Assembly (NCBI GenBank): GCA_001577215.1
Contig: LSCC01000029.1
Span: 1 to 63,134 of the forward strand
Direction: 5' to 3'
DNA length: 63,134 nucleotides
Source: Fidelibacterota bacterium TCS52
GTDB lineage: Bacteria > Fidelibacterota > Fidelibacteria > Fidelibacterales > Fidelibacteraceae
A program made the translations under genes and the position numbers. The notes beneath the pieces are model-generated. The model saw only the letters and a program-made list of their open reading frames with translations. It was not told the origin of the DNA and did no database searches. Positions 21,831 through 53,521 of the stretch are shown here, piece after piece. Every line of letters begins with the position of its first letter. The first letter of the stretch is position 1.

Positions 21831-22739
21831 ATGAATTTTAATAAAGTAAAAGAGAAATTTATAAAATATCTAAAAAATGTGAGGAAATACTCACCTTATA
21901 CTCAAAATTCTTATGATGAAGATTTAAATCAATTCTATTTATTTTGTACAGAATATTTCTCAAAAGCGAAAATTTCAATTAAAGATATTGATAAGTTGGC
22001 AGTTAGACATTTTTTGGGAATGTTATCTGAAAAAAAATATACAGCGAGATCAATTGCGAGGAAATTAGCCACTTTAAAATCATTTTTTAAATTTGTCATA
22101 AAAAATGAATGGATAAAAATTAATCCTTGTTATTCAATAAGGTCACCAAAAATATCAAAATCGTTACCAACCGGATTGAGTGAAGAGCAAACAAAGGAAA
22201 TTTTTGAGATAAATAAGGCGGATAATTTTATCCATAGCCGAGATCTTGCAATTATTGAAGTGTTTTATAGTTCGGGAATTCGACTTAGTGAATTAGTTAA
22301 TTTGAATATTAATGATTTAAATTTCCATAATGGATTGATTACTGTTATTGGCAAGGGAAACAAGGAAAGAGTATTGCCACTAGGCAAACATGCAATAGAA
22401 GCAATTGAAAAATATTTCATGTTTAGAAAGGAAAAATACGGAAAATTCACAAATGGAAGTCCACTATTTATTTCATCACGAAATAGGAGAATTACAAATC
22501 GCTCGGTTCAATATAGAATAGAGAAATATTTAAAGATCGTGTCAAAGGGAAGCAAAAAAAATAGTCCACATGTGTTGCGCCACTCATTTGCTACACAATT
22601 ATTGGATAATGGCGCAGATTTAGAATCGGTGAGAGCTTTACTTGGTCATTCAAGTTTATCATCAACCCAAATTTATACTCATATTAAAATGAAACATTTA
22701 TTAAAATCCTACAAACAAGCTCATCCACGAGCAGATTAA
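21831..22739 (+). CDS. Tyrosine recombinase, XerC/XerD type
   Basis: SAM-like N-terminal domain. Catalytic blocks GIRLSELVNL, HVLRHSFATQLL and LGHSSLSSTQIYTH. Housekeeping context with no flanking phage or IS genes. Confidence 0.85.
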   Translation: MNFNKVKEKFIKYLKNVRKYSPYTQNSYDEDLNQFYLFCTEYFSKAKISIKDIDKLAVRHFLGMLSEKKYTARSIARKLATLKSFFKFVIKNEWIKINPCYSIRSPKISKSLPTGLSEEQTKEIFEINKADNFIHSRDLAIIEVFYSSGIRLSELVNLNINDLNFHNGLITVIGKGNKERVLPLGKHAIEAIEKYFMFRKEKYGKFTNGSPLFISSRNRRITNRSVQYRIEKYLKIVSKGSKKNSPHVLRHSFATQLLDNGADLESVRALLGHSSLSSTQIYTHIKMKHLLKSYKQAHPRAD

Positions 22740-22836
22740 TAAATTAAATAGAGATTAATAGAATAATAATTGTTATATTATAGCAGTTAAGGAATTGCAA
22801 AAGTAATGAAAATCAATAAAAAACATGGAGGAGAAG

Positions 22837-23124
22837 ATGAGAGTTGAAATAACCGCAAGACATATCGATTTATCCCAGAATTTAAAAGAATATATTGAAA
22901 GTGAGTTGGAACGATTGTCAAAAATTTATGATAGGATTATAGATGTTCAAGTAATTTTTGAGACTGAAGCACATTCTCAATATGGTGTTGAAATAATTAT
23001 TAATGTCCCAAAGAAACAATTGGTTATTAAACAAAAAGCAGACAATGAAACGAAAGCAATAGATGAAGCAATAGAGAAAATGGTAAGACAATTAAAAAAA
23101 TATAAAGAAAAATTAAGACAATAA
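22837..23124 (+). CDS. hpf: Ribosome hibernation promoting factor (HPF/RaiA family, short form)
   Basis: MRVEITARHIDLSQNLKEYIESELERL is the family-typical N-terminus. GGAGGAG at 22827-22833 serves as the RBS for the ATG at 22837. The ORF-track start at 22825 is probably too early. Confidence 0.85.
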   Translation: MRVEITARHIDLSQNLKEYIESELERLSKIYDRIIDVQVIFETEAHSQYGVEIIINVPKKQLVIKQKADNETKAIDEAIEKMVRQLKKYKEKLRQ

Positions 23125-23127
23125 ATT

Positions 23128-24111
23128 ATGAGTAAAAAATTAGATATTCAAAAATTTTATGATAATATGAAAAATAGGACTAATTTAAAATACATAAATA
23201 GTCCTTTAGGAGCGAATACCGTTATCTCATCTCCAAAATTGAATATTCCCGGATTGGAGTTGACAGGATATTGGGAGAATTTTTCAACTGATAATATACA
23301 GATGATAAGTGAAAAGGAATTAAAATATTTAGTTTCTATTTCTCCAATGGCGATACAGTCAGTTTTTGAGAGAATGTTTTCTTTTCATATCCCATGTATA
23401 GTTTTTATTGAAGTAAATGAAATTCCCCCAATAATAATAGAAATTGCTAATAAGTATAAAGTTCCTGTAATGAAAACTCAAATGAAGATGATGCGTTTTA
23501 TGAAATTGGTCGGTTCTTACTTATATAAGGAATTAGCTCCTCGAACTATATTTCATGGAGGGCTTATTGATGTTTACGGTGCCGGAATATTGCTTACAGG
23601 TAAAAGTGGTATTGGTAAAAGTGAAATCGCTCTTGATCTTGTTGAACGCGGGCATAGATTAGTTGCCGATGATGTTGTCAATATAGAAAAAACAGATGAC
23701 AGGATAATAATGGGTTATGGAGAAGAACTGTTACAGAATACGCTTGAAATCAGAGGACTTGGCATAGTAAATGTAAGAAAAGCATTTGGGATCAGGGCAG
23801 TCAGAGCAAGAAAAAGAATTGAACAACATGTTGAATTATATCGTTGGGATGTAAATAAAGAATATGAAAGATTTGGACTACAGGATGAATATAGTGATAT
23901 TTTAGGTATCAAAGTTCCTTTCATAAAGCTGCCGATCTATCCCGGAAAAAATATTACAGTAATTATAGAAGCGATTGCATTGAGATATTTGCAAAAGTTA
24001 TATGGAGAAAACCCTTCTAAAGAATTACAGGAAAAATTAAAAAATAAAATGAAACCAAAGAAAAATGTTTCAACAATGAATGATGAACGATTTAAAGGTG
24101 ATTATGAATAA
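23128..24111 (+). CDS. hprK: HPr kinase/phosphorylase
   Basis: Walker A GKSGIGKSEIALDLVERGHRLVADDVV and the LEIRGLGIVNV signature. 327 aa. Confidence 0.92.
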   Translation: MSKKLDIQKFYDNMKNRTNLKYINSPLGANTVISSPKLNIPGLELTGYWENFSTDNIQMISEKELKYLVSISPMAIQSVFERMFSFHIPCIVFIEVNEIPPIIIEIANKYKVPVMKTQMKMMRFMKLVGSYLYKELAPRTIFHGGLIDVYGAGILLTGKSGIGKSEIALDLVERGHRLVADDVVNIEKTDDRIIMGYGEELLQNTLEIRGLGIVNVRKAFGIRAVRARKRIEQHVELYRWDVNKEYERFGLQDEYSDILGIKVPFIKLPIYPGKNITVIIEAIALRYLQKLYGENPSKELQEKLKNKMKPKKNVSTMNDERFKGDYE

Positions 24112-24138: not shown

Positions 24139-25125
24139 ATGAAGGCAATAATTCCTGCTGCTGGTGTCGGAACAAGATTAAGACCGCATACATTTACAAA
24201 TCCTAAAGTCATGTTGAATGTTGCCGGAAAACCGATCATTAGTCATATTGTTGACAGATTGATTGAAGCTGGAATAACAGAATTGTCAATTATTGTCGGA
24301 TATATGAGTCAAATAGTTGAAGATTATTTTAAAGAAAATTATTCAATCCAATGTGAATTTCCAGTACAAAAGGAAATGAAAGGTTTGGGTCATGCAATAT
24401 TACAAGGATTAGATGATAGTAATGAACCTGCATTAATTATTTTGGGTGATACAGTAATTGAAACGGATTTTAGGAAATTTGTTTTAAAAGATGAAAATAT
24501 TTTAGCTGTAGTAAAAGTTAACAACCCTAAAAGATTTGGGATTGTAGAGACAGATTCAGAAGATAATATCACAAAAATGGTTGAAAAACCTGATGATCCA
24601 CAAAGCGATCTTGCTATTGCAGGCATTTATTTAGTTCGTAGCCAAAAAGTTTTAAAATTAGCTATAGAAAAATTAATAAGTGATAATATTAAAACTCGGG
24701 GAGAATATCAAATTACTGATGCTCTTCAAATAATGATAAATAACGGTGAAAAAATTCAAGCTTTAAAGATAGATGATTGGTATGATTGTGGTACAAAAGA
24801 AACATTGTTATCAACAAATAAACACTTGTTATCTAAAATTAGTAAGACAGAGAAAAAATTTCCAAATTCAATTATAAAAGATAATGTTTTTATTGGTGAA
24901 AATGTAAAAATTAAAGATTCTATAATTGGGCCAAATGTGTCATTAGGAAGTGGAACTAAAATTGATAAGAGTATTATTTCAAACACGATCATTAATAAAA
25001 ATACAACAATATCTAACAAATTGATAGCTGATTCAATTATTGGAGAATCGGTAATAGTTAAAGGAGAATTATCTTCATTAAATATTGGAAAAGATTCGAT
25101 AATTTCAAATCAAACAAGATATTAA
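24139..25125 (+). CDS. Sugar-1-phosphate nucleotidyltransferase with a C-terminal left-handed beta-helix domain
   Basis: AAGVGTRLRPHTFTNPKVML signature, a GDT motif, and hexapeptide-like repeats at the C-terminus. Sugar specificity cannot be determined from sequence. Confidence 0.8.
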   Translation: MKAIIPAAGVGTRLRPHTFTNPKVMLNVAGKPIISHIVDRLIEAGITELSIIVGYMSQIVEDYFKENYSIQCEFPVQKEMKGLGHAILQGLDDSNEPALIILGDTVIETDFRKFVLKDENILAVVKVNNPKRFGIVETDSEDNITKMVEKPDDPQSDLAIAGIYLVRSQKVLKLAIEKLISDNIKTRGEYQITDALQIMINNGEKIQALKIDDWYDCGTKETLLSTNKHLLSKISKTEKKFPNSIIKDNVFIGENVKIKDSIIGPNVSLGSGTKIDKSIISNTIINKNTTISNKLIADSIIGESVIVKGELSSLNIGKDSIISNQTRY

Positions 25126-26306: not shown

Positions 26307-26891
26307 ATGAATTATATTTCCAAAATATTTTTGTTTTTGATATTGACCTTGATGCTTTCATGTGATTCATTACTTAGAGATAGTGAAAAACCTATTGATC
26401 CATCTGATACTCATTGGGAAATGCCAACAGAATCAAATGTTGTTTTTGAAAATATGATAAATGCTTTTCAATATAGAGAATATGAAAGCTATATCAAATG
26501 TTACTCTGATTCAACAACGAATAATGGTAAAAAATTCATTTTTATTCCAACTGTAACGGTAGATTATCCGGAGAAATTTGAAAATTGGGGGAGATCTGAA
26601 GAACTTGTTTATTTTCAAAATATGTTGTCATCTTGTTCGATCGATTCTACTTTAGAATTTAATATTTTAGAAGAAGAGGAAATAAATAATGTTGGTGATT
26701 CAATTCAATATCAGATTAATTATGAAATAAAAGTGCATCATAATCTCGATAATTTAAATAATAAATTTGTTGGGTCTGCAAATATATGGCTAATGAAAAA
26801 TCCTCAGAATTATTGGATTATTTATTATTTTGAAGATATCTCTACTTCTGATGAATTACCAAATTGGACTGATCTAAAAGAGTATTATTAA
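26307..26891 (+). CDS. Lipoprotein of unknown function (paralog of the next gene)
   Basis: Signal peptide plus lipobox LMLSC. Shares motifs with the downstream ORF (see findings). Confidence 0.6.
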   Translation: MNYISKIFLFLILTLMLSCDSLLRDSEKPIDPSDTHWEMPTESNVVFENMINAFQYREYESYIKCYSDSTTNNGKKFIFIPTVTVDYPEKFENWGRSEELVYFQNMLSSCSIDSTLEFNILEEEEINNVGDSIQYQINYEIKVHHNLDNLNNKFVGSANIWLMKNPQNYWIIYYFEDISTSDELPNWTDLKEYY

Positions 26892-26901
26892 ATATTTTGT
26901 T

Positions 26902-27471
26902 ATGAAAAAAGAAACAAAAATATTATTATCTTGTTTTATGTTATTATTTAATATAAGTAGTTGTAAAAATATCTTTGCTCCCAAATTAGAGAATTTTACT
27001 GGTGGACAATCACTTTTTAATAGGGTTTTAAATACACCAACAGATGTTTTGGAAAATTTTCGCTATGCATATATATATCGTGATAGTTTAGCGTACTCAA
27101 GTTTAATTGATAGTGATTTTGTTTTCATTTATTACAATGCCGATGATGAAGGTGGTAGTGGACATTATGATTCCTGGCTAAGGGAAGTGGAGTTACGCAC
27201 TACAGGAAGAATTTTTAGAGCTTTTTCGCATATTGATTTAACTTGGAATTCTACATTGGATAGTAGTTTTTCATATTATAGTGGAGATTCATTAGTAATT
27301 CAACAAGACGATATTTTTGAAGAAGCTAATAATGCAAATATTTCAAAATCATTTGAATTGAATTTGGGGTATGAAATAATAATTGAAGGAACTGCGAAAT
27401 TTGATTTTATTAAGAATAAAAATGATGAATGGCAAATTTGTAAATGGCGTGATGAATCAAACTCTTATTAA
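26902..27471 (+). CDS. Lipoprotein of unknown function (paralog of the previous gene)
   Basis: Signal peptide plus lipobox ISSC. Shares motifs with the upstream ORF. Confidence 0.6.
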   Translation: MKKETKILLSCFMLLFNISSCKNIFAPKLENFTGGQSLFNRVLNTPTDVLENFRYAYIYRDSLAYSSLIDSDFVFIYYNADDEGGSGHYDSWLREVELRTTGRIFRAFSHIDLTWNSTLDSSFSYYSGDSLVIQQDDIFEEANNANISKSFELNLGYEIIIEGTAKFDFIKNKNDEWQICKWRDESNSY

Positions 27472-27489
27472 AAAAATACAGAGATATTA

Positions 27490-28596
27490 TTGCATATAAA
27501 ATATTTTAAAAATAATTTTCCCGTTGTAAAAAAGATTTTGTTTATCATTGTAATTATATTTGCAGTAATTACTTTTTTGATAGTTAATATAATAAATAAT
27601 AGAATTGAAAAACAACACAAAAACATTGAACTTAGGTCACTTGTTTATGAAAAAATTATTCCATCACTTAATTCAAAATTATTTGATTTTAAATTGCAAA
27701 GTTCACGAATGGACAGTGTCAATAATATTAAATATTATAGTTATATTTACAAAAGTGATTCCACAGGTATTGAAAATATTAATAAATTAATAAAATATTT
27801 AAATATAAAAAATTTGGCTTTCAAATATTGTGAATTAAAAAAATGTAAATATATTATTAAAATTCTTGATAATAAGAATGAACCATTTGTAATAATAAGA
27901 TTAAGTACATCCAAAAAAGTAAAGGGAAAAATAGCTCTAATTATTGATGATTTTGGATATTTTGACAATGATTTATCTGATAGTTTTTTCAATTTGCCAA
28001 AGGAAATAACCTTTTCAGTTATTCCAGGACATCAATTTTCAAAAATATTAGCAAGAAAAATAGATAAGTTAAATCATAATTTATTGATTCATTTACCAAT
28101 GGAACCAATAGATTATAAAGGCGACGAAAAACAATATATCATTATGACTGAAATGAATAGTTATGAAATAGAAAATAGAATAGATAAAGCAATTAATGAT
28201 TTACCTCAGGCAATTGGTATTAATAATCATATGGGTTCAAAATCAACTTCAGATTTAGTAACAATGAATAAAGTTGCTAATACTATTAAAAACAAAGATT
28301 TATTATTTGTTGATTCTTTTACATTTAAAAATTCTATTGCATATAAAGTTATGAAAAAACATGATATTCCAACCGCTAAAAGAGATATTTTTATTGATAA
28401 TGAAAATGATTCAGAATATATTTCCCAACAGATAGATAAATTGGTTCAGCTTGCTATTAAAAATGGGAAAGCGATTGGAATTGGACATGGAAGAAAAAAT
28501 ACTTTATTAATGTTACAGAAAAAAATACCTGATATTATTTCAAATGGTATAGTATTGGTATCAATATCGGAATATCTATATAAAACTGCGAATTAA
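27490..28596 (+). CDS. Divergent polysaccharide deacetylase (YibQ-like), N-terminally membrane-anchored
   Basis: TTG start. TM helix ILFIIVIIFAVITFLIV. KIALIIDDFGY...ITFSVIPG...LIHLPMEP...GINNHMGS blocks are typical of the YibQ family. Confidence 0.8.
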   Translation: MHIKYFKNNFPVVKKILFIIVIIFAVITFLIVNIINNRIEKQHKNIELRSLVYEKIIPSLNSKLFDFKLQSSRMDSVNNIKYYSYIYKSDSTGIENINKLIKYLNIKNLAFKYCELKKCKYIIKILDNKNEPFVIIRLSTSKKVKGKIALIIDDFGYFDNDLSDSFFNLPKEITFSVIPGHQFSKILARKIDKLNHNLLIHLPMEPIDYKGDEKQYIIMTEMNSYEIENRIDKAINDLPQAIGINNHMGSKSTSDLVTMNKVANTIKNKDLLFVDSFTFKNSIAYKVMKKHDIPTAKRDIFIDNENDSEYISQQIDKLVQLAIKNGKAIGIGHGRKNTLLMLQKKIPDIISNGIVLVSISEYLYKTAN

Positions 28597-28676
28597 TAAA
28601 AATTACTTGACAAAGTTGAAAAATATTATTAACTTAAATTAGTAAAATAGAATTTAGTGTAAAATGAGAAAAAGTT

Positions 28677-29594
28677 ATGAGTAATAAGAAATATATTTTG
28701 TTTATTGAAAATGGTTCTGAAATGCAAGAAATGCATTTAAATTGGAAACATTTTATTAGTATTTTCATTGTAATTTTTGTTTTGCTTTCAATTTCTGTAT
28801 TTGGGGTGTCCAAAATATTTTCAAAATTTCAATATCAAAAAAAAATTGCTAAAGCGTATAAAGAAAATGACAATTTAGAATTGTCGTTAAATTTAATGCA
28901 AAAAAAAGTATCTGAACTAAATAAGAAGATCAATAATATTAAAGAAAAAGATAAAGCAATTCGTCTTTACTCAAATTTACCTGAAAACGACATTAATATT
29001 GATGAATTAGGAACAGGTGGTAGGGTTAATAGAAAATTATTTGTTGGAAACGAAAATTCACAAAAAGCAACGAAATTGGTAAATGTTGATAAAAGTCTAA
29101 CTCGAATATCAAAAGAACTACAATCTGCATTAATTAGTTACGAAAATCTTACGGAAATTTTAAAAAGAAAAAAACAAAAACTTGATGCTACACCGACAAT
29201 TGCTCCGTTAAAAAATAATGCCTATATTTCTTCTTCTTATGGGAAAAGAGTGGATCCATTTACTGGGCGTATAGGAATGCATGATGGAATTGATTTTGCT
29301 ACAAGAAGTGGTAATTCAATTTATGCTACTGCAGATGGAAAAGTGAAATATGCCAAATATATTGGGGGATATGGATATACTGTCAAAATTATTAATGGAT
29401 TTGGTTATAGTACAATTTTTGGTCATATGAGTAAAATGAAAGTGAAAAAAGGACAGAGTGTAAAACGAGGTGATCTTATAGGATATGTTGGTAATACAGG
29501 TAGATCTACCGGTCCACATTTACATTATGAAATAAGATATAAAAGCCAATCAGTAAATCCAATAAAGTATATGTGGATTAGAAAAAAACTATAA
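28677..29594 (+). CDS. M23-family metallopeptidase (intact LytM active site), membrane-anchored with a coiled coil
   Basis: HxxxD (MHDGID) and HxH (GPHLHYEI) zinc ligands are present. N-terminal TM helix. Confidence 0.85.
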   Translation: MSNKKYILFIENGSEMQEMHLNWKHFISIFIVIFVLLSISVFGVSKIFSKFQYQKKIAKAYKENDNLELSLNLMQKKVSELNKKINNIKEKDKAIRLYSNLPENDINIDELGTGGRVNRKLFVGNENSQKATKLVNVDKSLTRISKELQSALISYENLTEILKRKKQKLDATPTIAPLKNNAYISSSYGKRVDPFTGRIGMHDGIDFATRSGNSIYATADGKVKYAKYIGGYGYTVKIINGFGYSTIFGHMSKMKVKKGQSVKRGDLIGYVGNTGRSTGPHLHYEIRYKSQSVNPIKYMWIRKKL

Positions 29595-29620
29595 ATTAAA
29601 TTTTTATGAATATTATTTTT

Positions 29621-29652
29621 AATGCTTGTAAAGATCTTTGCAAGCATTTTTT
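29621..29652 (+). terminator. Intrinsic terminator after the M23 peptidase gene
   Basis: Near-perfect inverted repeat AATGCTTGTAAAGA/TCTTTGCAAGCATT (one G-U pair), followed by TTTTTTAATTTT. Confidence 0.75.
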
Positions 29653-29670
29653 AATTTTAAAAAATAGGTA

Positions 29671-30729
29671 ATGATGTTAAGATCAATTAGAATTATTTTA
29701 CTTTTAAATTTTGTATTATCTCAAATATTATTTGCTATACAAAAAGATGCATCGTTATCCGATAGTAATTTCACATTCACTGTAAGTTGTGTTGGTGATA
29801 TTATGTTAGGAACCTCATTCCCACAGAATTATTTACCACCCAATGATGGAAAAGATATACTCAGAAATGTAACAAAAATTATAGATAATAGTGATATTGC
29901 GATTGGCAATTTAGAAGGGTGTATAGCTGATAGCGGTAAAACAACAAAATGCGATAGTAGTGAAAATTGTTATGTGTTTAGAATGCCAATAAAATATGGA
30001 GATTTGCTGAAAAGGGCGGGATTTGATTTGCTATCCATTGCAAATAATCATATTAATGATTTTGGTGTTTATGGTCGTAAATCTACAATTAACGCATTAG
30101 ATAATTTAAATATTGGATGGTCCGGTCCACCAAAAACTTATGCAGAATTACAAAATGCAGATGTTAAAGTTGCTTTTATTGCCTTTTGTCCATATAGTCA
30201 TTCTAATGATCTAAGAAAAATAGAACAATCAAAAAAAATAATTAAAAATTTATCACAAAAATATGATGTGATAATTGTATCTTTTCACGGTGGAGCCGAA
30301 GGTGAAGATGCTTTGAGAGTTTCTGATACAACTGAATATTATTATGAAGAAAATCGTGGAAACTTGAAAAAATTCACTCATGCTGTAATCGATGCCGGAG
30401 CTGATCTTATTTTTGGGCATGGTCCGCATGTATTGAGAGGAATGGAAGTATATAAAAGTAGATTAATTGCATATTCACTTGGTAATTTTGCAACATATAA
30501 GAGATTTGATCTTGATGGTAATTTGGGTAAATCAGCAATTTTAAAAGTATCTTTAGATAAGAATGGGCGACTTGTATCAGGAAAAATTATTCCAATAAAG
30601 CAAAATTATCCGGGAATTCCTGTAATCGATAGATCAAATTATTCATTAAAATTAATAAATAAATTGTCTAATGATGATTTCCCAAATAGTGGAATAAAAA
30701 TAGATTCTAATGGAATATTTATTAAATAA
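29671..30729 (+). CDS. CapA-family protein (PGA_cap metallophosphatase-like), secreted
   Basis: Signal peptide. VGDIMLG..., ANNH, HGG.E and GHGPH motifs characteristic of the CapA/PgsA family. Confidence 0.85.
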   Translation: MMLRSIRIILLLNFVLSQILFAIQKDASLSDSNFTFTVSCVGDIMLGTSFPQNYLPPNDGKDILRNVTKIIDNSDIAIGNLEGCIADSGKTTKCDSSENCYVFRMPIKYGDLLKRAGFDLLSIANNHINDFGVYGRKSTINALDNLNIGWSGPPKTYAELQNADVKVAFIAFCPYSHSNDLRKIEQSKKIIKNLSQKYDVIIVSFHGGAEGEDALRVSDTTEYYYEENRGNLKKFTHAVIDAGADLIFGHGPHVLRGMEVYKSRLIAYSLGNFATYKRFDLDGNLGKSAILKVSLDKNGRLVSGKIIPIKQNYPGIPVIDRSNYSLKLINKLSNDDFPNSGIKIDSNGIFIK

Positions 30730-30791
30730 TATAATTTGTTATTTTATCGCAGATGTACTGAAAAACTGTCCTTTTATCTCGATCTCTTGAC

Positions 30792-31400
30792 TCAAAAAAA
30801 TAACCAGTTCTCTTTAATTATCTTCCCAAACAAATCAGAACACTTTTTTAAATTTTTATTGAATGAATTAGTAGCATTATCATTTGCATTGTCAGAAATA
30901 ATTTTAATAATATTAATAGGTATTTTTTTCTTAATTGCTTTTTCTGTAATAAAATAACCTTCCATATCTACAACATCATATTTATTTTGATTATTAATTG
31001 TATCCTTTACAGTATTATTAATTATCGGTTTTGCAACTGTTAACAAGTTAACATTTTTACCATTAATATTATTGTAAATCGAAATATCGAATGATTTCAA
31101 ATTATTTTCAAGAAATATATTTTTTACATTTACAATTCCTAATATTTTTAAATAATCTTTTAATGCACCAACTGTACCAAAATTATAGATAAATTCAGGA
31201 GTATATTTTTGTAGATAATAATCTAAAGCTTTGACAGTTGAATCTCTTCCGATTCCGGTTTGTAATAAATGTAATTTTTTATTTTTAAATTCCAATTCCA
31301 TTAGTAGAATATTTTTATCAACATTATCTGTTTTAATAATTTTTGTAAAACTTAAAATATTTTTATATTCTGATTTGTGGGCAAATGTTAATAATTTCAT
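30792..31400 (-). CDS. Nucleoside phosphorylase-superfamily protein (MTA/SAH nucleosidase- or futalosine hydrolase-like)
   Basis: LLQTGIGRDSTVKAL, NFGTVGAL, VVDMEGYFI and IIKIISDNAND align with the E. coli MtnN blocks LLKSGIGKVAAA, NTGSAGGL, AVEMEATAI and VVRAISDVAD. Confidence 0.7.
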   Translation of the reverse strand: MKLLTFAHKSEYKNILSFTKIIKTDNVDKNILLMELEFKNKKLHLLQTGIGRDSTVKALDYYLQKYTPEFIYNFGTVGALKDYLKILGIVNVKNIFLENNLKSFDISIYNNINGKNVNLLTVAKPIINNTVKDTINNQNKYDVVDMEGYFITEKAIKKKIPINIIKIISDNANDNATNSFNKNLKKCSDLFGKIIKENWLFF

Positions 31401-31537
31401 TTTAGATTTTCTATATACTTTTTCATTTATACTCTTCTATTTTAATACAATATAATTTATGAATATTTCTATAAGAGTGAAATAAAAATAATAGATAAAA
31501 TTCTTGAATATTATATAATGAACAAGTAAATTTAGGT

Positions 31538-32731
31538 ATGAATTGGATGCGATTATTAATAGGAATAGTTTTACTGTCTATTTCACAATCAATATTTTGT
31601 GAAAGTATATCTGATTATAACCGTAAGATTAAAAATAGAAATAGGGAATTACAGAATATTGAAAATGAGATCAGCATATTAAGACAAGGTATTCAAAATG
31701 AAAGACAAGCAGAGAGTTCATTATTTGAGCAATTGAATCAGACAGAGCGTGAAATATCATTAACAAATAAAAAAATTACTACCCAAAAGGAAAAATTAGA
31801 ATTACAAAAGAATAAGTTAAAAGCATTGAAATCAAAAAAAAACTATCAAGTAGTTCAAAAAGAAAATTTGAAAGAAAGGTATAAGAATAGAGTTAGACGT
31901 TTTTATAAGAATTATAATGATGATGTTTATTCATTTATTTTTAATTCGGATAATATGAATGAATTATTTTATCGTTTAAAGTATTTTCAAATCATTAATG
32001 AGATAGATAAGAAATTATATGATAAAATAAAATTTTTAATAAGTGATATTGAAAATAAAACAGTTCAAATCTATGATGGGAAAAAAGAGATAATAAAAAC
32101 AATAAATGAATTAAAATATGAAGATGTTAATCTTCAAAGAATGAAAAGTAAACGTACCAATAGTTTGGCTAAAGTTAAGAAAAATCGATTAGCATTAATG
32201 GAATCGTTAAAGAATAAAGAAGAATCTCTTCAGAAAATAAAGGATATGATAAGTAAAATTGAAAAAAACAAAGAAAAGTATTTAGCAGAATTAAAAAGAC
32301 AAAGGGAATTAGAAGCGAGAAAGAGAAAAAAAAGTTATGCAAAAGGACAAATACCCTGGCCCGTTTATGGTCCTGTAATAAGTAAATTTGGAAAGGAAGT
32401 ACATCCTGGATTAAAAACCGTTACAGAAAATCCGGGTATTGATATTCAAGCAAAGAAAGGAACAGGTGTAATATCTGTAATGGATGGAATGGTAACATCA
32501 GTTACATGGTTACGTGGATATGGAAATACAGTTATTATTTTTCATGAAAATGGTTTTTTTACAGTATACTCTCATGTTGATGGAATTAAAATAAAAGAAA
32601 ACGACTATGTAAAATCCGGCCAAACAATAGCAGAAGTAAGTGATAGTGGATCTGTAAAAGGTGATATGCTTCATTTTGAAATATGGGATGAAAAACAAAA
32701 TTTAAATCCGGAAACTTGGTTAAAAAGATAG
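31538..32731 (+). CDS. EnvC-like murein hydrolase activator (coiled coil plus a degenerate LytM/M23 domain)
   Basis: Signal peptide, a ~250-aa coiled coil, and a C-terminal M23 fold. The zinc ligands are replaced (NPGID in place of HxxxD; MLHFE in place of HxH), as in E. coli EnvC. Confidence 0.8.
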   Translation: MNWMRLLIGIVLLSISQSIFCESISDYNRKIKNRNRELQNIENEISILRQGIQNERQAESSLFEQLNQTEREISLTNKKITTQKEKLELQKNKLKALKSKKNYQVVQKENLKERYKNRVRRFYKNYNDDVYSFIFNSDNMNELFYRLKYFQIINEIDKKLYDKIKFLISDIENKTVQIYDGKKEIIKTINELKYEDVNLQRMKSKRTNSLAKVKKNRLALMESLKNKEESLQKIKDMISKIEKNKEKYLAELKRQRELEARKRKKSYAKGQIPWPVYGPVISKFGKEVHPGLKTVTENPGIDIQAKKGTGVISVMDGMVTSVTWLRGYGNTVIIFHENGFFTVYSHVDGIKIKENDYVKSGQTIAEVSDSGSVKGDMLHFEIWDEKQNLNPETWLKR

Positions 32732-32765: not shown

Positions 32766-34193
32766 GTGAAAGAAAAAACAAGACAAATATTAATTAAAAT
32801 TTATGAAAAACAATTTAAAGAAAAAGTAAAAAATATTTCAAAATTAGCTCGTTCTGGTTCTAATAGGGAATATTATCGTATAAGAAGTGATAACAATTCG
32901 GCAATTGGTGTTTATAATTCTGATAAAAAAGAAAATATTGCTTTTATTGAATTCACAAAACATTTTTTAGAAAACGATTTAAATGCTCCGAAAATCTATC
33001 AATCTGATTTGAAGAAAAATGTTTATCTTGAGGAAGATCTGGGTGATAAAACACTTTTCGAATTTTTGTCTAATGTCTATCAAAAGGGAATATTTCCACA
33101 AAATTTAATTGATCTTTATAAAAACATTTTAACCATACTTCCAAAAATTCAGATAAATGTTGATAAAAAAATAGATTATTCTAAATGCTATCCTCGCAAG
33201 TCATTTGACCGTCAATCTATGATGTGGGATCTAAATTATTTTAAATATTATTTTTTAAAATTAGTAAAAGTTTCATTTGATGAACAATTATTAGAGGATG
33301 ATTTTCAAAAGTTTTGTGATTATTTATTAGATGTTGAAAATAATTTCTTTTTATATAGGGATTTCCAATCGCGAAACATTATGTTGAAAGATAACAAAAT
33401 TTATTTTATTGATTATCAAGGTGGTAGAAAAGGAGCATTGCAATATGATGTTGCATCTTTACTTTATGATGCAAAGGCAAATATTCCAGATCATATTCGT
33501 GAAGAATTATTGAAACATTATATTAATAAATTACAGAATTATGTTAAAATTGATGAACAAAAATTTGTTAAGCAATATTACGGATATGTTTTAATAAGAA
33601 TAATGCAGGCAATGGGTGCTTATGGATTTAGAGGATTTTATGAACGAAAAGAACACTTTTTGAAAAGTATTCCTTATGCAATAAAAAACTTGAAATTCAT
33701 TTTAAAAAATATTGACTTACCGATTGAAATACCAATTTTGATGGAAGCATTGAATAATGTAGTAGAATCAAAATATCTAAAAAAAATTGGTAATAAAAAA
33801 AATAATTTACAAGTTCGTATAAATAGTTTTGCATATAAAAAAGGGATTCCCGGAGATGCAAAAGGCAATGGTGGCGGATTTGTTTTTGATTGTAGGGGAA
33901 TTTTAAATCCCGGAAGAATTGATGAATATAAAAATATGATCGGGAAAGATAAAATTGTACAAGAGTTTTTAGAAAATGAAACTGAGATAAATGATTTTCT
34001 AACAAATGCTTTTGTTTTAGTGGATAAAACAGTTGAAAATTATATAAGTAGAAATTTTACAGATTTGCTAGTTAATTTTGGTTGTACAGGAGGGCAACAT
34101 CGTTCTGTTTATTGTGCTGAAAAATTATCAAAACATTTGGAAAATAAATTTGATATCTCAGTAAATTTAAATCATAGAGAACTCGAGAGTTAA
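32766..34193 (+). CDS. Fusion protein: APH-fold sugar kinase domain (AmgK-like MurNAc/GlcNAc anomeric kinase) plus a RapZ-type C-terminal domain
   Basis: GTG start. Kinase motifs YRDFQSRNIML, FIDYQGG and YDVASLLYDA. From about residue 347, FAYKKGIP, FVFDCRGILNPG and FGCTGGQHRSVYCAEKL match the RapZ/YvcJ C-terminal blocks. There is no Walker A motif. Confidence 0.8.
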   Translation: MKEKTRQILIKIYEKQFKEKVKNISKLARSGSNREYYRIRSDNNSAIGVYNSDKKENIAFIEFTKHFLENDLNAPKIYQSDLKKNVYLEEDLGDKTLFEFLSNVYQKGIFPQNLIDLYKNILTILPKIQINVDKKIDYSKCYPRKSFDRQSMMWDLNYFKYYFLKLVKVSFDEQLLEDDFQKFCDYLLDVENNFFLYRDFQSRNIMLKDNKIYFIDYQGGRKGALQYDVASLLYDAKANIPDHIREELLKHYINKLQNYVKIDEQKFVKQYYGYVLIRIMQAMGAYGFRGFYERKEHFLKSIPYAIKNLKFILKNIDLPIEIPILMEALNNVVESKYLKKIGNKKNNLQVRINSFAYKKGIPGDAKGNGGGFVFDCRGILNPGRIDEYKNMIGKDKIVQEFLENETEINDFLTNAFVLVDKTVENYISRNFTDLLVNFGCTGGQHRSVYCAEKLSKHLENKFDISVNLNHRELES

Positions 34194-34200
34194 TAATTAT

Positions 34201-34947
34201 ATGAAAGCAATGATATTAGCAGCTGGCTATGGTACTCGACTAAAACCGATTACAAATAATATTCCCAAAGCACTGGTTGAAGTTAATAATATTACCCTTT
34301 TGGAAAATGCAATAAAAACGATCACAAAATTTGATTTTAATGATATAATAATTAATGTTCATCACTTTGCTGAAAAAATGAGAACATTTATAAGTGAAAA
34401 TAATTTTTCTGCAAACATTTCAATTTCAGATGAGGATGAGATATTGTTGGATACAGGTGGTGGTTTAAAAAATGTTCATTGGTTTTTTGATAAAGAACCA
34501 TTTTTGTTATTTAATGTTGATGTTGTATCTGATATAAATTTAAGTAAAATGATGAAATTTCATAAAAGATCGGATGCCTTAGTTACATTAGCTATTCGAA
34601 AACGAAGATCATCGAAATATTTGTTGTTTAATGAAGGTAACAAATTAGTTGGTTGGAAAAATCAGAAAAATGGTGAAGAGAAAATTGTAAAGGAAATGAA
34701 GAACTTTTTGAAGGAAATGGCATTTAGTGGGATTCATATTATTGAACCAAAAATATTTGAATTAATGCCAAAAGAAAACAAATTTTCTATCATTGAATTA
34801 TATTTAAATTTAGCAAATAATTATTTGATACAAGGTTTTGACCATTCCGATTCACAGTGGATAGATGCAGGGAAAAAGCATGGGTTGATTCAAGCAAGGG
34901 AAATGATGGTTAATAGCAATGAACGAAAAATGAACAATATAAAATAG
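34201..34947 (+). CDS. murU: MurU-like N-acetylmuramate-1-phosphate uridylyltransferase (sugar-1-P nucleotidyltransferase)
   Basis: ILAAGYGTRLKPITNNIPKALV signature. ~250 aa with no beta-helix tail. It is 7 nt downstream of the AmgK-like gene, which is the canonical amgK-murU pairing. Specificity is inferred from context. Confidence 0.7.
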   Translation: MKAMILAAGYGTRLKPITNNIPKALVEVNNITLLENAIKTITKFDFNDIIINVHHFAEKMRTFISENNFSANISISDEDEILLDTGGGLKNVHWFFDKEPFLLFNVDVVSDINLSKMMKFHKRSDALVTLAIRKRRSSKYLLFNEGNKLVGWKNQKNGEEKIVKEMKNFLKEMAFSGIHIIEPKIFELMPKENKFSIIELYLNLANNYLIQGFDHSDSQWIDAGKKHGLIQAREMMVNSNERKMNNIK

Positions 34948-38813: not shown

Positions 38814-39941
38814 ATGGCACATGCTTATATTCCGGGTTTAAAAGTGGTACCAAATACAACAGTAAAGAAAGCAAGACAATTACCGATCAAGGGTGAAATA
38901 TTAAGAAAAGTAGGAGAAAATGTAGCTGCAGTTGATGAAGTAGCAAAGACACATTTACCTGGTAACATAATTCCTACAAATATTGCAAATAAATTAAATA
39001 TAGAACCGGCTGATATAAATGATTTTATGAAAAAAGAAGAGGGTGATCCAATAAAAGAAGGTGAGGTAATTGCTGAAACGAATGGAATATTTGGACTGTT
39101 TAAAAGTTCTGTACAAGCTCCTATTGATGGAACATTAGAATCATTTTCACATATTACCGGTCAAGCGATTTTACGAGAAAGTCCAATTCCTGTAGCAGTA
39201 AATGCTTATGTTAATGGTGTTGTTGATGAAATTATTGCAGATGAAGGAGTAGTTGTAAAAACTCAAGCAGCATTTATTCAAGGGGTTTTTGGTATTGGTG
39301 GAGAGCAAAGAGGAAAAATAAAAATTGTTACTTCTATGCAAGATGATCCTATTGAAGAAAAAATGATAGATGAAAGTTGTAAAGATAAAATTATTGTTGG
39401 TGGAGCATTTTTAACGCATTCAGCTTTCAAAAAAGCATTAAAAATGAAAGTGAAAGGAATTGTTGTTGGTGGATTTAACTACAATGATATTAAAAAAATA
39501 ATTGGGTACGATATCGGTGTAGCAATAACCGGACAGGAAGATGTTAATACAACATTGATTTTAACTGAGGGATTTGGTGAAATTCATATGGCAAAACAGA
39601 CATTTGAATTACTGAAAAAACATGAAGGAGATGTTGCGTCCATTAATGGTGCGACTCAGATTCGTGCAGGTGTGATTCGTCCGGAAGTGATTATTCCAGT
39701 AAAAGCAGACTTAAAAAAAGACTCTCCTAAACAAGAAATAATTGGAATGGATATTGGTACAGAGGTAAGAATAATTCGTGCACCATATTTTGGAATGATA
39801 GGGAGTGTATCCGGACTTCCACATAAATTACAAAAATTAGAATCAGGTTCTTTAGCTCGTGTTGCAAAAATAAAAATATGGGAAACTAAAAAAGAAGTAT
39901 TATTACCACGAGCAAACTTAGAGATGATTGAAAATAAATAA
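38814..39941 (+). CDS. Hypothetical protein with a barrel-sandwich-hybrid (lipoyl/RnfC-N-like) segment
   Basis: TAGGAGGA RBS. KEGDPIKEGEVIAETNG...VQAPIDGTLESF is a hybrid-barrel hairpin pattern. I do not recognise the rest. 375 aa. Confidence 0.55.
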   Translation: MAHAYIPGLKVVPNTTVKKARQLPIKGEILRKVGENVAAVDEVAKTHLPGNIIPTNIANKLNIEPADINDFMKKEEGDPIKEGEVIAETNGIFGLFKSSVQAPIDGTLESFSHITGQAILRESPIPVAVNAYVNGVVDEIIADEGVVVKTQAAFIQGVFGIGGEQRGKIKIVTSMQDDPIEEKMIDESCKDKIIVGGAFLTHSAFKKALKMKVKGIVVGGFNYNDIKKIIGYDIGVAITGQEDVNTTLILTEGFGEIHMAKQTFELLKKHEGDVASINGATQIRAGVIRPEVIIPVKADLKKDSPKQEIIGMDIGTEVRIIRAPYFGMIGSVSGLPHKLQKLESGSLARVAKIKIWETKKEVLLPRANLEMIENK

Positions 39942-39962
39942 TAATAATTGATTAGGAATATT

Positions 39963-40364
39963 ATGTATTTTACAAGTAAATATTTTAATGATACAATACT
40001 ATTTAAGGCAAAGGATATAGTACTAAGCGATTTGGGAATTGTTCAATATAAAAGAGGTCTTGCATCTGCATTATCTAAACAAGATGTGAAAAATATTATT
40101 TTAGATTTCAAACGAGTAAAAATTAATAATAGTAATGGACTAAGCACATTATTATTGGCAAAAAGGTATTCTCAAGGTAAAGGAGGAAAATGTACCTTAG
40201 CATTTCCTCAACCCAAAGTTGTTAGTTGTATGAAAAAAGCAGGTATTTATAAGCTCTTTGGAATCATTGATGATAAGAATGAATATCAAAATATGATGAA
40301 GAAATTCAAGAAAGTGAATGAAGTAGAAAAACCATCAAATAACAAAACTATCAATAAAAAATAA
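39963..40364 (+). CDS. STAS-domain protein (anti-sigma-factor-antagonist-like)
   Basis: ILDFKRVKINNSNGLSTLLLA resembles the SpoIIAA DLS.V..IDSSGL block. The ATG at 39963 follows AGGA. The ORF-track TTG start at 39948 is an alternative. Confidence 0.55.
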   Translation: MYFTSKYFNDTILFKAKDIVLSDLGIVQYKRGLASALSKQDVKNIILDFKRVKINNSNGLSTLLLAKRYSQGKGGKCTLAFPQPKVVSCMKKAGIYKLFGIIDDKNEYQNMMKKFKKVNEVEKPSNNKTINKK

Positions 40365-52042: not shown

Positions 52043-53521
52043 ATGTTCAAAATAATACTAAAAAAAATATTTATTCCATTATTTGCTTATGTATTATTTT
52101 TTAACACTTTATTTTCACAAGAATTAGGTATTGATACTTATTCAAAATATTTAACATTTTCTCCATATGAGAAAGAAATGAATACAATTTATCCCATGAA
52201 CTGGATCTCTTTTGGAAAGTGTGAATTCCCAAAGGATTTTGATTCGACATACACTTTTTTGAAATGGACTCAAGCAGATTATGCTTCATCTGAAGTATTA
52301 GTAAAATACAGGCCGGTAACCAAAAATAAAAAATTAATGATAGCAAGTGAATGGATCAATTATGAAGGGGCTTCGCCAACTGATAGATTTGGTTTTGTGG
52401 GAAAATTAGTAACCGAAAAATCTGTATTAAATTATTCGAGAATAAATTTTAAACAAGAAATTCAATTATCAACCAATCGTGCAAAATATGACTTAATAAC
52501 TCATGATTTGGTCTTTAATCACAACTATGGGAATAATCATTTAAATTTATTTGGTTCATTAAAAATCATTGATGCGAATAAAAAAAATATAGATTCAACA
52601 TTACTTGGTCATCATTTTTACTCAATTTCAAAATTAGGAAATTCATTTTTATTTGGAAATTTGAAATTTAATATATTAGGTAAAAATATTGATTATTGGT
52701 ATGATGATAATTATGAACATTTGTGGAATATTAAGTCCGGTATTACAATTGATCTTGGAAGGATAACAGCAAATGCTTTTGCAAAATATTATTCCAATGA
52801 TAAAATTTATCCCCAAATGAATATTATTTTTGAAACACGACCTTTAAAAATTAACCTGTTTTATCAAACTAAGAAAACACCATTTGAGTTAAATAGATAT
52901 TTTTCTAATATCAATTTTATGGATAAAATGATCGGTGGGAAAATTAAATTAAATATTTCTAATAGAATTTTTGACATTAAGTATTCGGGATCTATTTACT
53001 CACAATTAAATAATTCAAATTCAATATTTTATCAGAGTGATTCTTTAATATTAATTGAAGAAAATGGAGGTTTATTTTCTAATGGAGAGTTATTTGCAGG
53101 TATAAATTTTAATTATTTCAAGATATTTTCACAATTGAATTATAATTTTGCAAGTGATTTTAATTATAATTTTTATCATCCTGATATTTTAGATTTTCAT
53201 ACAGGAATAAAAAGTAAATTTAAATTATTTGATAACAATTTATTATTAGATACCAAGGTTGAAGGAATATATCAATATCATAAGAATTCAAATGAGGTGA
53301 AATTTAATTCGGCTCTGTTACGATATATTCCAATTTATCAATCCGGTGATTTCTACACAGGTAATTGGACAATGAATGCTTCTATTAGTGGAACAGTTCA
53401 AACATTTACTATAGAATTGCAGATGATAAATATTTTAGATAGTTATGTTTACTCTGCTCAAAATGTTTTTCCAAATCAAAGATTTACTAAAGTTACTGTT
53501 TATTGGAGTTGGATGAAGTAA
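52043..53521 (+). CDS. Putative outer-membrane beta-barrel protein
   Basis: Signal peptide MFKIILKKIFIPLFAYVLFFNTLFSQ. Aromatic- and Asn-rich alternating strands throughout. 492 aa. No recognised family. Confidence 0.55.
   Translation: MFKIILKKIFIPLFAYVLFFNTLFSQELGIDTYSKYLTFSPYEKEMNTIYPMNWISFGKCEFPKDFDSTYTFLKWTQADYASSEVLVKYRPVTKNKKLMIASEWINYEGASPTDRFGFVGKLVTEKSVLNYSRINFKQEIQLSTNRAKYDLITHDLVFNHNYGNNHLNLFGSLKIIDANKKNIDSTLLGHHFYSISKLGNSFLFGNLKFNILGKNIDYWYDDNYEHLWNIKSGITIDLGRITANAFAKYYSNDKIYPQMNIIFETRPLKINLFYQTKKTPFELNRYFSNINFMDKMIGGKIKLNISNRIFDIKYSGSIYSQLNNSNSIFYQSDSLILIEENGGLFSNGELFAGINFNYFKIFSQLNYNFASDFNYNFYHPDILDFHTGIKSKFKLFDNNLLLDTKVEGIYQYHKNSNEVKFNSALLRYIPIYQSGDFYTGNWTMNASISGTVQTFTIELQMINILDSYVYSAQNVFPNQRFTKVTVYWSWMK

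Follow-up and report, generated by a model that had tools for sequence, protein, structure and literature searches.

This study concerns a two-gene locus within a window of 63,134 nucleotides (nt; the whole stretch of DNA that was analysed, with a G+C content of ~28%) from Fidelibacterota bacterium TCS52 (contig LSCC01000029.1). The first gene encodes a kinase resembling AmgK, to which a C-terminal domain of the RapZ type is appended, and the second encodes a nucleotidyltransferase resembling MurU. The same three parts recur in a large family of bacterial loci in several arrangements, and in what follows we describe the two genes and their relatives, weigh a putative role in the salvage of cell-wall amino sugars against its alternatives, and compare the family with the systems to which its parts are related.

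The kinase gene, its RapZ-type domain and the MurU-like neighbor

In the open reading frame (ORF) listing, the first gene occupies positions 32766-34193 of the plus strand, begins with a GTG codon, encodes 475 amino acids (aa), and ends with a stop codon at 34191-34193, and its start and reading frame are sound because close relatives share the same N-terminus and length. The second gene (34201-34947, plus strand, 248 aa) begins with an ATG at 34201, which leaves a gap of 7 nt after the upstream stop (34193 to 34201), as described in a first-pass annotation prepared from the sequence alone. That annotation had also named a frameshift or stop splitting the frame as a possible objection; a frameshift or an assembly artifact can be ruled out, since at least 8000 database clusters share this two-domain architecture at a length of ~471-490 aa and the same protein, without any difference, is found on 6 contigs. 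The features of the locus are as follows, with conservation referring here and below to 311 aligned family members.

32766..34193 (+): AmgK-like kinase with RapZ C-terminal domain, whole 475-aa ORF (Pfam, NCBIfam, phmmer against the PDB, AlphaFold, Foldseek)
32766..33665 (+): kinase domain of the APH/protein-kinase-like fold, aa ~1-300 (Pfam APH; NCBIfam AmgK, ~45 bits; PDB 3csv)
33354..33386 (+): catalytic loop YRDFQSRNIML, aa 197-207 (D199 and N204, ≥98% conserved)
33405..33425 (+): metal-binding FIDYQGG, aa 214-220, with D216 as the DFG equivalent (D216, Q218, G219, and G220 ≥98% conserved)
33666..33806 (+): helical linker between the kinase and the RapZ-type domain, aa 301-347 (predicted helices 301-315, 323-334, and 336-340; mean column identity 0.58)
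33807..34187 (+): RapZ C-terminal domain PF22740, aa 348-474 (Pfam E=1e-33, full length; TM 0.91 to 5o5s)
33864..33878 (+): glycine-rich loop GNGGG specific to the family, aa 367-371, belonging to an insertion of 5 residues that is absent from E. coli RapZ (G369-G371 ≥98% conserved)
34083..34106 (+): phosphate cradle C440-T-G-G-Q-H-R446-S447, CX5R(S/T), the counterpart of C247-S254 in E. coli RapZ (≥98% conserved)
34201..34947 (+): MurU-like sugar-1-phosphate nucleotidyltransferase, 248 aa (Pfam NTP_transferase; NCBIfam MurU NF045761, 120 bits)

The N-terminal part of the 475-aa protein is an APH-fold kinase for which AmgK is the best profile and structure match. The Pfam APH family matches it weakly, over aa 167-257, and the best NCBIfam kinase models are the AmgK equivalogs NF045759 and NF045698, at 45.8 and 45.1 bits, respectively, while a phmmer search of the PDB matches aa 24-305 to 3csv, a putative aminoglycoside phosphotransferase, with E=4e-16. 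The same entry is the top PDB match in a Foldseek search with the AlphaFold model of the whole protein (predicted local distance difference test, pLDDT, 88; predicted template-modeling score, pTM, 0.75), where it is found at a TMt of 0.75 alongside RapZ entries at probability 1.0, and the part of the 3csv sequence that could be reconstructed itself has AmgK as its best model, at 236.8 bits. The catalytic Asp-x4-Asn loop and the DFG-like Asp of the APH fold are both in place, D199, N204, and D216 being at least 98% conserved, and the gene is paired in the genome with one of the MurU type. The AmgK-like kinase of the first-pass annotation is therefore borne out in its fold, its motifs, and its best curated family, but its scores fall far under the equivalog cut-offs, and because the scores of both the AmgK and the MurU comparisons lie so low, specificity of the kinase for N-acetylmuramic acid (MurNAc) should be taken as a prediction from sequence likeness.

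The C-terminal part is a RapZ C-terminal domain. Pfam places PF22740 on aa 348-474 over the full length of the model (positions 1-121 of 121; E=1e-33; 116.5 bits, the cut-off being 27), and phmmer matches residues 142-280 of E. coli RapZ in the PDB to aa 330-474 with E~1e-15. When aa 343-475 are modeled by themselves with AlphaFold (pLDDT 92), the result fits onto the crystal structure of the RapZ C-terminal domain, 5o5s, with a TM score of 0.91, a root-mean-square deviation of 1.8 Å, and 36% identity, and apart from RapZ this model has no significant Foldseek match in the PDB. The NCBIfam model for complete RapZ (NF003828) aligns over its positions 142-278 only and scores 107.7 bits where the cut-off is 244. 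Neither Pfam nor NCBIfam finds the P-loop (Walker A) N-terminal domain of RapZ in the protein, and a tblastn search with E. coli RapZ over the whole window recovers only residues 140-280 and no P-loop rapZ. Both the RapZ C-terminal fold and the missing Walker A domain had been proposed from the sequence, and both proposals stand. The motifs quoted in the annotation were likewise all located, namely YRDFQSRNIML, FIDYQGG, YDVASLLYDA (aa 227-236), and GCTGGQHRSV (aa 439-448), together with the RapZ-like blocks LQVRINSFAYKKGIP (aa 348-362) and FVFDCRGILNPG (aa 372-383). One of the E. coli strings with which these blocks had been compared, LTVSILSFGFKYGIP, differs from the actual sequence of E. coli, LTMVFESFGFKHGIP; the alignment itself is real.

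Residues were mapped onto a sequence of E. coli RapZ whose length and whose numbering of H190, C247, T248, G249, H252, and R253 agree with the published papers and with the PDB alignment. In E. coli RapZ, a pocket formed by H190, T248, G249, H252, and R253, with C247 nearby, binds sulfate or malonate (PMC5737377), and the isolated C-terminal domain binds glucosamine-6-phosphate (GlcN6P), an amino-sugar 6-phosphate (PMC7073468). Most of the pocket is retained in the protein described here, with C440, T441, G442, H445, R446, and S447 standing in the places of C247, T248, G249, H252, R253, and S254, respectively, and the resulting CX5R(S/T) motif, C440-TGGQH-R446-S447, lies between a predicted strand (433-440) and a predicted helix (446-461). 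A fold of the protein tyrosine phosphatase (PTP) kind was considered for the domain but gained no support, with Foldseek returning PTP and dual-specificity phosphatase (DUSP) entries only at E~3-4 and a probability of at most 0.04, and no significant likeness to the cysteine phosphatases.

Several of the features through which E. coli RapZ contacts RNA are missing. The C-terminus reads ...HRELES and has no basic KRKP tail, and the RNA-contact residues R238, K251, and H190 are replaced by F431, Q444, and G383, while the equivalents of K170 and R184 are kept. In sum, the attributes of RapZ divide between the pocket-bearing PF22740 domain, which is present, and the P-loop N-terminal domain, the RNA tail, the small RNA (sRNA) partners, and the curated score, which are not. 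Khan et al. noted that the putative metabolite site is widely conserved and that the tail for RNA binding occurs only in Enterobacteriaceae, to which the sRNAs GlmY and GlmZ are also restricted (PMC7073468).

The second gene encodes a MurU-like nucleotidyltransferase with a minimal NTP_transferase fold. Its product, starting with MKAMILAAGYGTRLKPIT, is covered over aa 2-234 of 248 by Pfam NTP_transferase (PF00483), carries the N-terminal G-x-G-T-R signature, and lacks a C-terminal left-handed β-helix. The two best NCBIfam models are both MurU, NF045761 at 120 bits and NF045697 at 100.6 bits. Among the PDB matches are the MurU entries 8hhd and 4y7t, which are not uniquely best, as transferases acting with UTP on glucose-1-phosphate and on mannose-1-phosphate are matched equally strongly. 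Judged by these models, the enzyme would be a MurNAc-1-phosphate uridylyltransferase.

Conservation, gene linkage, and fusions

The architecture is neither an artifact nor a rarity. A protein search returns at least 8000 matches to the 475-aa protein, and in the best 120 of them, which share 57-87% identity with it and nearly all measure 471-503 aa (one is a 324-aa fragment), PF22740 is present throughout and PF01636 in nearly every member. Homologues of ~475 aa at 50-64% identity number in the thousands and span Bacteroidota, Calditrichota, Ignavibacteria, Marinimicrobia, Acidobacteriota, and Elusimicrobia; the named sources among the protein matches listed are Marinimicrobia, Ignavibacteria, Calditrichota, Cyclobacteriaceae, and Vecturithrix. 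The nearest named relatives, at 79% identity, belong to metagenome-assembled genomes (MAGs) of Candidatus Marinimicrobia/Neomarinimicrobiota, and MEA3500032.1 is a sibling in the same 90% cluster. A scan restricted to one genome per species confirmed at least 531 loci, and the neighborhood counts given below refer to the best 80 of these, which further include Bacteroidales, Prolixibacteraceae, Acidobacteriota (Terriglobales), and Elusimicrobia, as well as single MAGs labeled Lentisphaeria, Methylomirabilis, and Deferribacteres. Among the cultured members of the family are Mariniphaga anaerophila DSM 26910, Labilibaculum filiforme, Alkalitalea saponilacus DSM 24412, and Caldithrix abyssi.

Both halves of the protein are equally constrained, with a mean column identity of 0.71 for the kinase half and 0.70 for the RapZ-type half. 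Besides the kinase residues D199, N204, and D216, positions conserved in at least 98% of the members comprise the cradle C440-T-G-G-x-H445-R446-S447, the glycines G369-G371, D375, R377, and N381-P382.

The link between the kinase and a MurU-like gene, which had been drawn from this single locus, proves stronger than first seen. In 52 of the 80 loci, from at least 8 phyla, the kinase-RapZ_C gene is followed on its own strand by a MurU-like homologue that starts 3-376 nt further on, and three more loci are too short for judging the adjacency. When the 731 ORFs of the 80 loci were clustered, the MurU-like gene emerged as the sole widely conserved neighbor, and none of AnmK, MupP, NagZ, MurQ, GlmS, and GlmR was a conserved neighbor in the same set. 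The remaining neighbors are lineage-specific, for example YebC and DUF218 in Prolixibacteraceae and a glycoside hydrolase of family GH20 in one locus. In the Prolixibacteraceae/Draconibacterium loci without a MurU-like gene (L025 and others, such as L004, L010, and L011), a DUF218 gene lies upstream on the opposite strand and a gene of the YebC/TACO1 family downstream. In the GH20-bearing locus (L043, 3542-5962; a MAG labeled Bacteroides sp.), the β-N-acetylhexosaminidase gene ends 38 nt upstream on the same strand, and no MurU-like gene adjoins the kinase-RapZ_C gene.

A profile of the RapZ-type domain, run against 1.84 billion representative proteins, matched 4954 clusters at E≤1e-3 and 365 at E≤1e-30, and revealed further ways in which the kinase (K), the RapZ-type domain (Z), and the uridylyltransferase-like enzyme (U) are joined. 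All three reside on one polypeptide in P0297, P0315, P0362, and P0388 (720-770 aa), where Pfam finds APH, RapZ_C, and NTP_transferase in the order K-Z-U. These triple fusions recur identically in independent assemblies, and a profile built from them returns as its best 120 matches proteins of 717-789 aa that all contain the three Pfam families; the clusters have up to 185 members, the named ones being Bacteroidaceae, and for the triple fusion, too, AmgK and MurU rank first among the curated models. Two further lineages split the module differently, with a kinase ORF of ~335 aa that ends within the linker region, followed 19-53 nt on by a Z-U fusion (RapZ_C-NTP_transferase). The locus in the window, with K-Z and a separate U, is a third arrangement. 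Since the RapZ-type domain is attached to either enzyme or to both, it is a pathway component and not an unrelated passenger, and it belongs to the salvage module as a built-in third element.

The same profile search brought up other architectures, for each of which a gene-calling run-on is possible: HEAT repeats with RapZ_C in P0288 (570 aa), a 3'-5' exonuclease (DNA_pol_A_exo1) with APH and RapZ_C in P0264 (718 aa), and unannotated N-terminal extensions with RapZ_C in P0330 (545 aa) and P0347 (642 aa).

The surroundings of the locus in the window contain the following genes.

21831-22739: XerC/XerD-type tyrosine recombinase (Phage_integrase with SAM-like N-domain), between a pseudouridine synthase gene and hpf
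22825-23124: hpf (Ribosomal_S30AE)
23128-24111: HPr kinase (hprK), 4 nt after hpf
24139-25125: second sugar-1-phosphate nucleotidyltransferase, a 328-aa NTP_transferase with a hexapeptide/β-helix tail (best NCBIfam models rmlA_long and archaeal GlmU, both under cut-off)
27490-28596: YibQ-type divergent polysaccharide deacetylase
28677-29594: M23 peptidase
29671-30729: CapA/PGA_cap protein
30792-31400 (-): PNP_UDP_1 nucleosidase-like (MTA-nucleosidase-like) gene
31538-32731: second M23 peptidase, its catalytic domain preceded by a long N-terminal extension

The cell-envelope cluster 27490-32731 lies directly upstream of the kinase gene, and metK is also found upstream of it, while the downstream genes are those for threonine aldolase, cdsA, a MutL-type protein (PF13941, 36937-38757), PAP2, and gyrB/gyrA. 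The Xer-type gene is probably a housekeeping recombinase rather than a mobile-element integrase. In many bacteria the P-loop rapZ/yhbJ gene is located in the hpf/pts neighborhood; here, the hpf neighborhood holds the second sugar-1-phosphate nucleotidyltransferase, and a P-loop rapZ is absent. Within the 63-kb window there is no glmS, glmS ribozyme, murA/B, anmK, glmR/yvcK, or P-loop rapZ, and an Rfam search over it finds two tRNAs and nothing else. Four sizeable ORFs (194, 189, 375, and 492 aa; 26307-27471, 38814-39941, and 52043-53521) have no Pfam match at E≤1e-5, and the 375-aa one lies between the PF13941 protein and a STAS-domain protein (39948-40364).

A putative amino-sugar salvage module and its alternatives

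The interpretation to which we incline, if by a small measure, is that the three parts form an amino-sugar salvage module in which the RapZ-type domain would bring about the coupling or regulation of both enzymatic steps through its binding of an amino-sugar phosphate. It draws on what was observed, namely the domain identities, the equal constraint on both halves, the linkage to the MurU-like gene, the fusions, the retained pocket residues, and the GH20 gene of the one Bacteroidales locus, whereas the sugar, the ligand, and the effect of binding are predictions. The two roles put forward for the domain in the first-pass annotation, a sensor of amino-sugar status or a sugar-phosphate lid for the kinase, are likewise hypothetical. 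The AmgK-type anomeric kinase would phosphorylate a free cell-wall amino sugar at C1, most likely MurNAc and possibly also N-acetylglucosamine (GlcNAc), and the MurU-like enzyme would turn the resulting sugar-1-phosphate into a UDP-sugar for peptidoglycan synthesis. The RapZ-type domain would serve as a conserved phosphate-binding module within this pathway and not as an RNase adaptor, its C-x5-R cradle and the family-specific glycine-rich loop being the most likely site at which the amino-sugar phosphate is bound; candidate ligands are the sugar-1-phosphate intermediate itself or an effector such as GlcN6P, MurNAc-6-phosphate (MurNAc-6P), or a UDP-sugar. Binding of the ligand could serve to link the two reactions or to control them, probably inside an oligomer formed through the RapZ-type domain, because the E. 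coli domain dimerizes.

Several points weigh against this interpretation. The scores of both enzymes are low, the AmgK equivalog cut-offs (550 and 500 bits) standing far above the 45.8 and 45.1 bits obtained, so that the sugar may be another, and the MurU models falling short as well (120 against 250 bits; 100.6 against 370). The pocket, too, has changed, as E. coli H190 is replaced by an invariant G383 followed by an invariant R384, giving NPGR instead of NPHW, and the 5-residue insertion, new relative to E. coli RapZ, creates the G(N/H)GGG loop; together these suggest that the ligand may differ from GlcN6P. An adjacent MurU-like gene is lacking in 25 of the 80 loci, mostly those of Prolixibacteraceae, Draconibacterium, and other Bacteroidales. 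The literature yielded no ligand or activity data for any family member.

The first alternative concerns the substrate and is independent of the others. The pair may salvage a sugar other than MurNAc, such as GlcNAc, N-acetylgalactosamine, or another hexose by way of its 1-phosphate, with the likeness to AmgK and MurU holding at the level of the families. The shortfalls in score (45 bits against 500-550 for AmgK, 120 against 250 for MurU) favor it, as do the PDB matches to UTP-glucose-1-phosphate and mannose-1-phosphate transferases, which are as strong as those to MurU. Nevertheless, we regard it as unlikely, if with an appreciable chance of being correct: no curated model scores higher than AmgK and MurU, either for the two genes or for the triple fusion, the order of a kinase and then a minimal nucleotidyltransferase is that of amgK-murU, and the window contains two genes for M23 peptidoglycan peptidases upstream of the pair. 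AmgK/MurU homologues have moreover been reported by homology for Bacteroides (PMC8054146), and for the homologues from Tannerella forsythia, expression in E. coli has provided validation. The T. forsythia AmgK may be a member of the kinase-RapZ_C family, and our literature search found nothing that links the Tannerella AmgK with RapZ.

A second alternative makes the RapZ-type domain itself an enzyme, namely one that relies on a cysteine to dephosphorylate or otherwise transform an amino-sugar 6-phosphate, for instance MurNAc-6P to MurNAc. The domain would then be a functional analogue of the haloacid dehalogenase (HAD) phosphatase MupP, and the kinase and RapZ-type domain together would act as a two-step "mutase" from the 6-phosphate to the 1-phosphate. 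The invariant CX5R(S/T) at a predicted strand-helix junction would suit such a role, and so would the nature of GlcN6P, the ligand known for the domain, as a 6-phosphorylated amino sugar (PMC7073468). In E. coli RapZ, the exchanges C247A and even C247S abolish activity, leading Islam et al. to suggest that the thiol "may fulfil a specialised catalytic function", and a crystal of the C-terminal domain grown with GlcN6P contained an apparent chemically transformed product (PMC9841335); in the Pseudomonas pathway, furthermore, a phosphatase step immediately precedes AmgK (PMC8054146). Against this stand the missing Foldseek similarity to PTP or DUSP structures, the lack of any report of phosphatase activity for RapZ or YvcJ in the RapZ literature examined, the absence of AnmK or another source of MurNAc-6P from the window and from the conserved neighbors, and the position of the domain in the fusions, where it sits between the kinase and the uridylyltransferase and not ahead of the kinase. 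On balance, we consider this reading improbable.

An evolutionary extension of this reading, which we regard as doubtful, holds that the RapZ C-terminal domain was catalytic in origin and still is so here, the three parts forming a three-enzyme line to UDP-MurNAc and enterobacterial RapZ being a regulatory derivative. The candidate activity would be a cysteine-dependent phosphatase of MurNAc-6P or GlcNAc-6-phosphate, and, if true, a catalytic origin would account for two puzzling observations on E. coli RapZ, the effect of C247S and the density of GlcN6P described as "chemically transformed".

A third alternative would reduce the domain to a purely structural element for oligomerization or scaffolding, joining the kinase to the uridylyltransferase with no role in ligand binding. 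The C-terminal domain of E. coli RapZ does dimerize by itself, and dimerization is needed for its function (PMC5737377, PMC7073468); the placement between both enzymes in the triple fusions fits a linker as well. However, the highest conservation falls on the anion cradle and the glycine-rich loop (≥98% in the 311 sequences) and not on surface patches of the interface type, and the domain is overall conserved as strongly as the catalytic kinase domain, so that a scaffold alone strikes us as quite improbable.

Finally, a RapZ orthologue with an exchanged N-terminal domain, still acting as an RNA-binding adaptor or signaling protein that controls glmS, is very hard to credit, for although the C-terminal domain is homologous, K170 and R184 have retained equivalents, and near-identical proteins bear the NCBI name "RNase adapter RapZ", the P-loop domain and KRKP tail are missing, R238, K251, and H190 are replaced, the RNA tail and GlmY/GlmZ are restricted to Enterobacteriaceae (PMC7073468), Rfam finds only the two tRNAs in the window, the RapZ model reaches 107.7 bits against 244 over the C-terminal half only, and the steady fusion or operon with a nucleotidyltransferase indicates metabolism.

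Significance and relation to known systems

RapZ and YvcJ are widely conserved, and their metabolite-binding C-terminal domain is understood only in the enterobacterial sRNA circuit. What the primordial role of this domain may have been is a question posed by the RapZ literature itself, to which the kinase-RapZ_C family offers a direct experimental handle, as the same domain appears here in a plain cell-wall sugar salvage module and hence in a simple biochemical setting for its binding or action. The AmgK/MurU bypass, in turn, is seen to have a three-component form in Bacteroidota (including the abundant host-associated Bacteroidaceae), Acidobacteriota, Elusimicrobia, and others; this route matters for tolerance to fosfomycin and for cell-wall labeling tools that make use of MurNAc.

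The first-pass annotation had named no characterized protein with this architecture. We found no paper that describes or tests it, yet it is very common and already cataloged in domain databases and under NCBI names, those in use being "RapZ C-terminal domain-containing protein", "phosphotransferase", and "RNase adapter RapZ". The last of these is attached to two-domain proteins that have neither the P-loop nor the RNA tail (P0510, which is MEA3500032.1, and P0004, P0049, P0085, P0126, and P0145), likely as an over-annotation from a partial model match, and many public records that carry this name are misleading.

Three known systems are closest to the locus. The anabolic AmgK/MurU route of MurNAc recycling, as found in Pseudomonas putida and also in Caulobacter, Legionella, and Tannerella forsythia, has the same layout, with the gene for an APH-fold anomeric kinase followed by one for a uridylyltransferase of ~230-250 aa. 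It differs in that canonical AmgK is a single-domain protein (the NCBIfam models have 324 and 360 positions), whereas a 127-residue RapZ-type domain is appended here and is fused to the MurU-like enzyme or to both enzymes elsewhere in the family, and in that the scores of the present proteins lie below the equivalog cut-offs.

With RapZ (YhbJ) of E. coli and YvcJ of Bacillus subtilis (UPF0042), the protein has only the C-terminal domain in common, at 36% identity and a TM score of 0.91 and with the pocket residues kept. An APH kinase takes the place of the P-loop N-terminal domain, there is no basic tail, H190 has become Gly, a glycine-rich insertion of 5 residues has been added, and the genomic partner is a nucleotidyltransferase gene, in contrast to the rpoN/pts genes or glmR that accompany RapZ/YvcJ.

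Bacteroides Fkp and HldE are bifunctional salvage enzymes that combine a sugar kinase with a nucleotidyltransferase. The triple-fusion relatives of the present protein resemble them in uniting a sugar-1-kinase with the matching nucleoside diphosphate (NDP)-sugar pyrophosphorylase on one polypeptide, and are set apart from them by the APH rather than the GHMP or ribokinase fold of the kinase, by a different order of domains, and by the RapZ-type domain that stands between the two enzymes.

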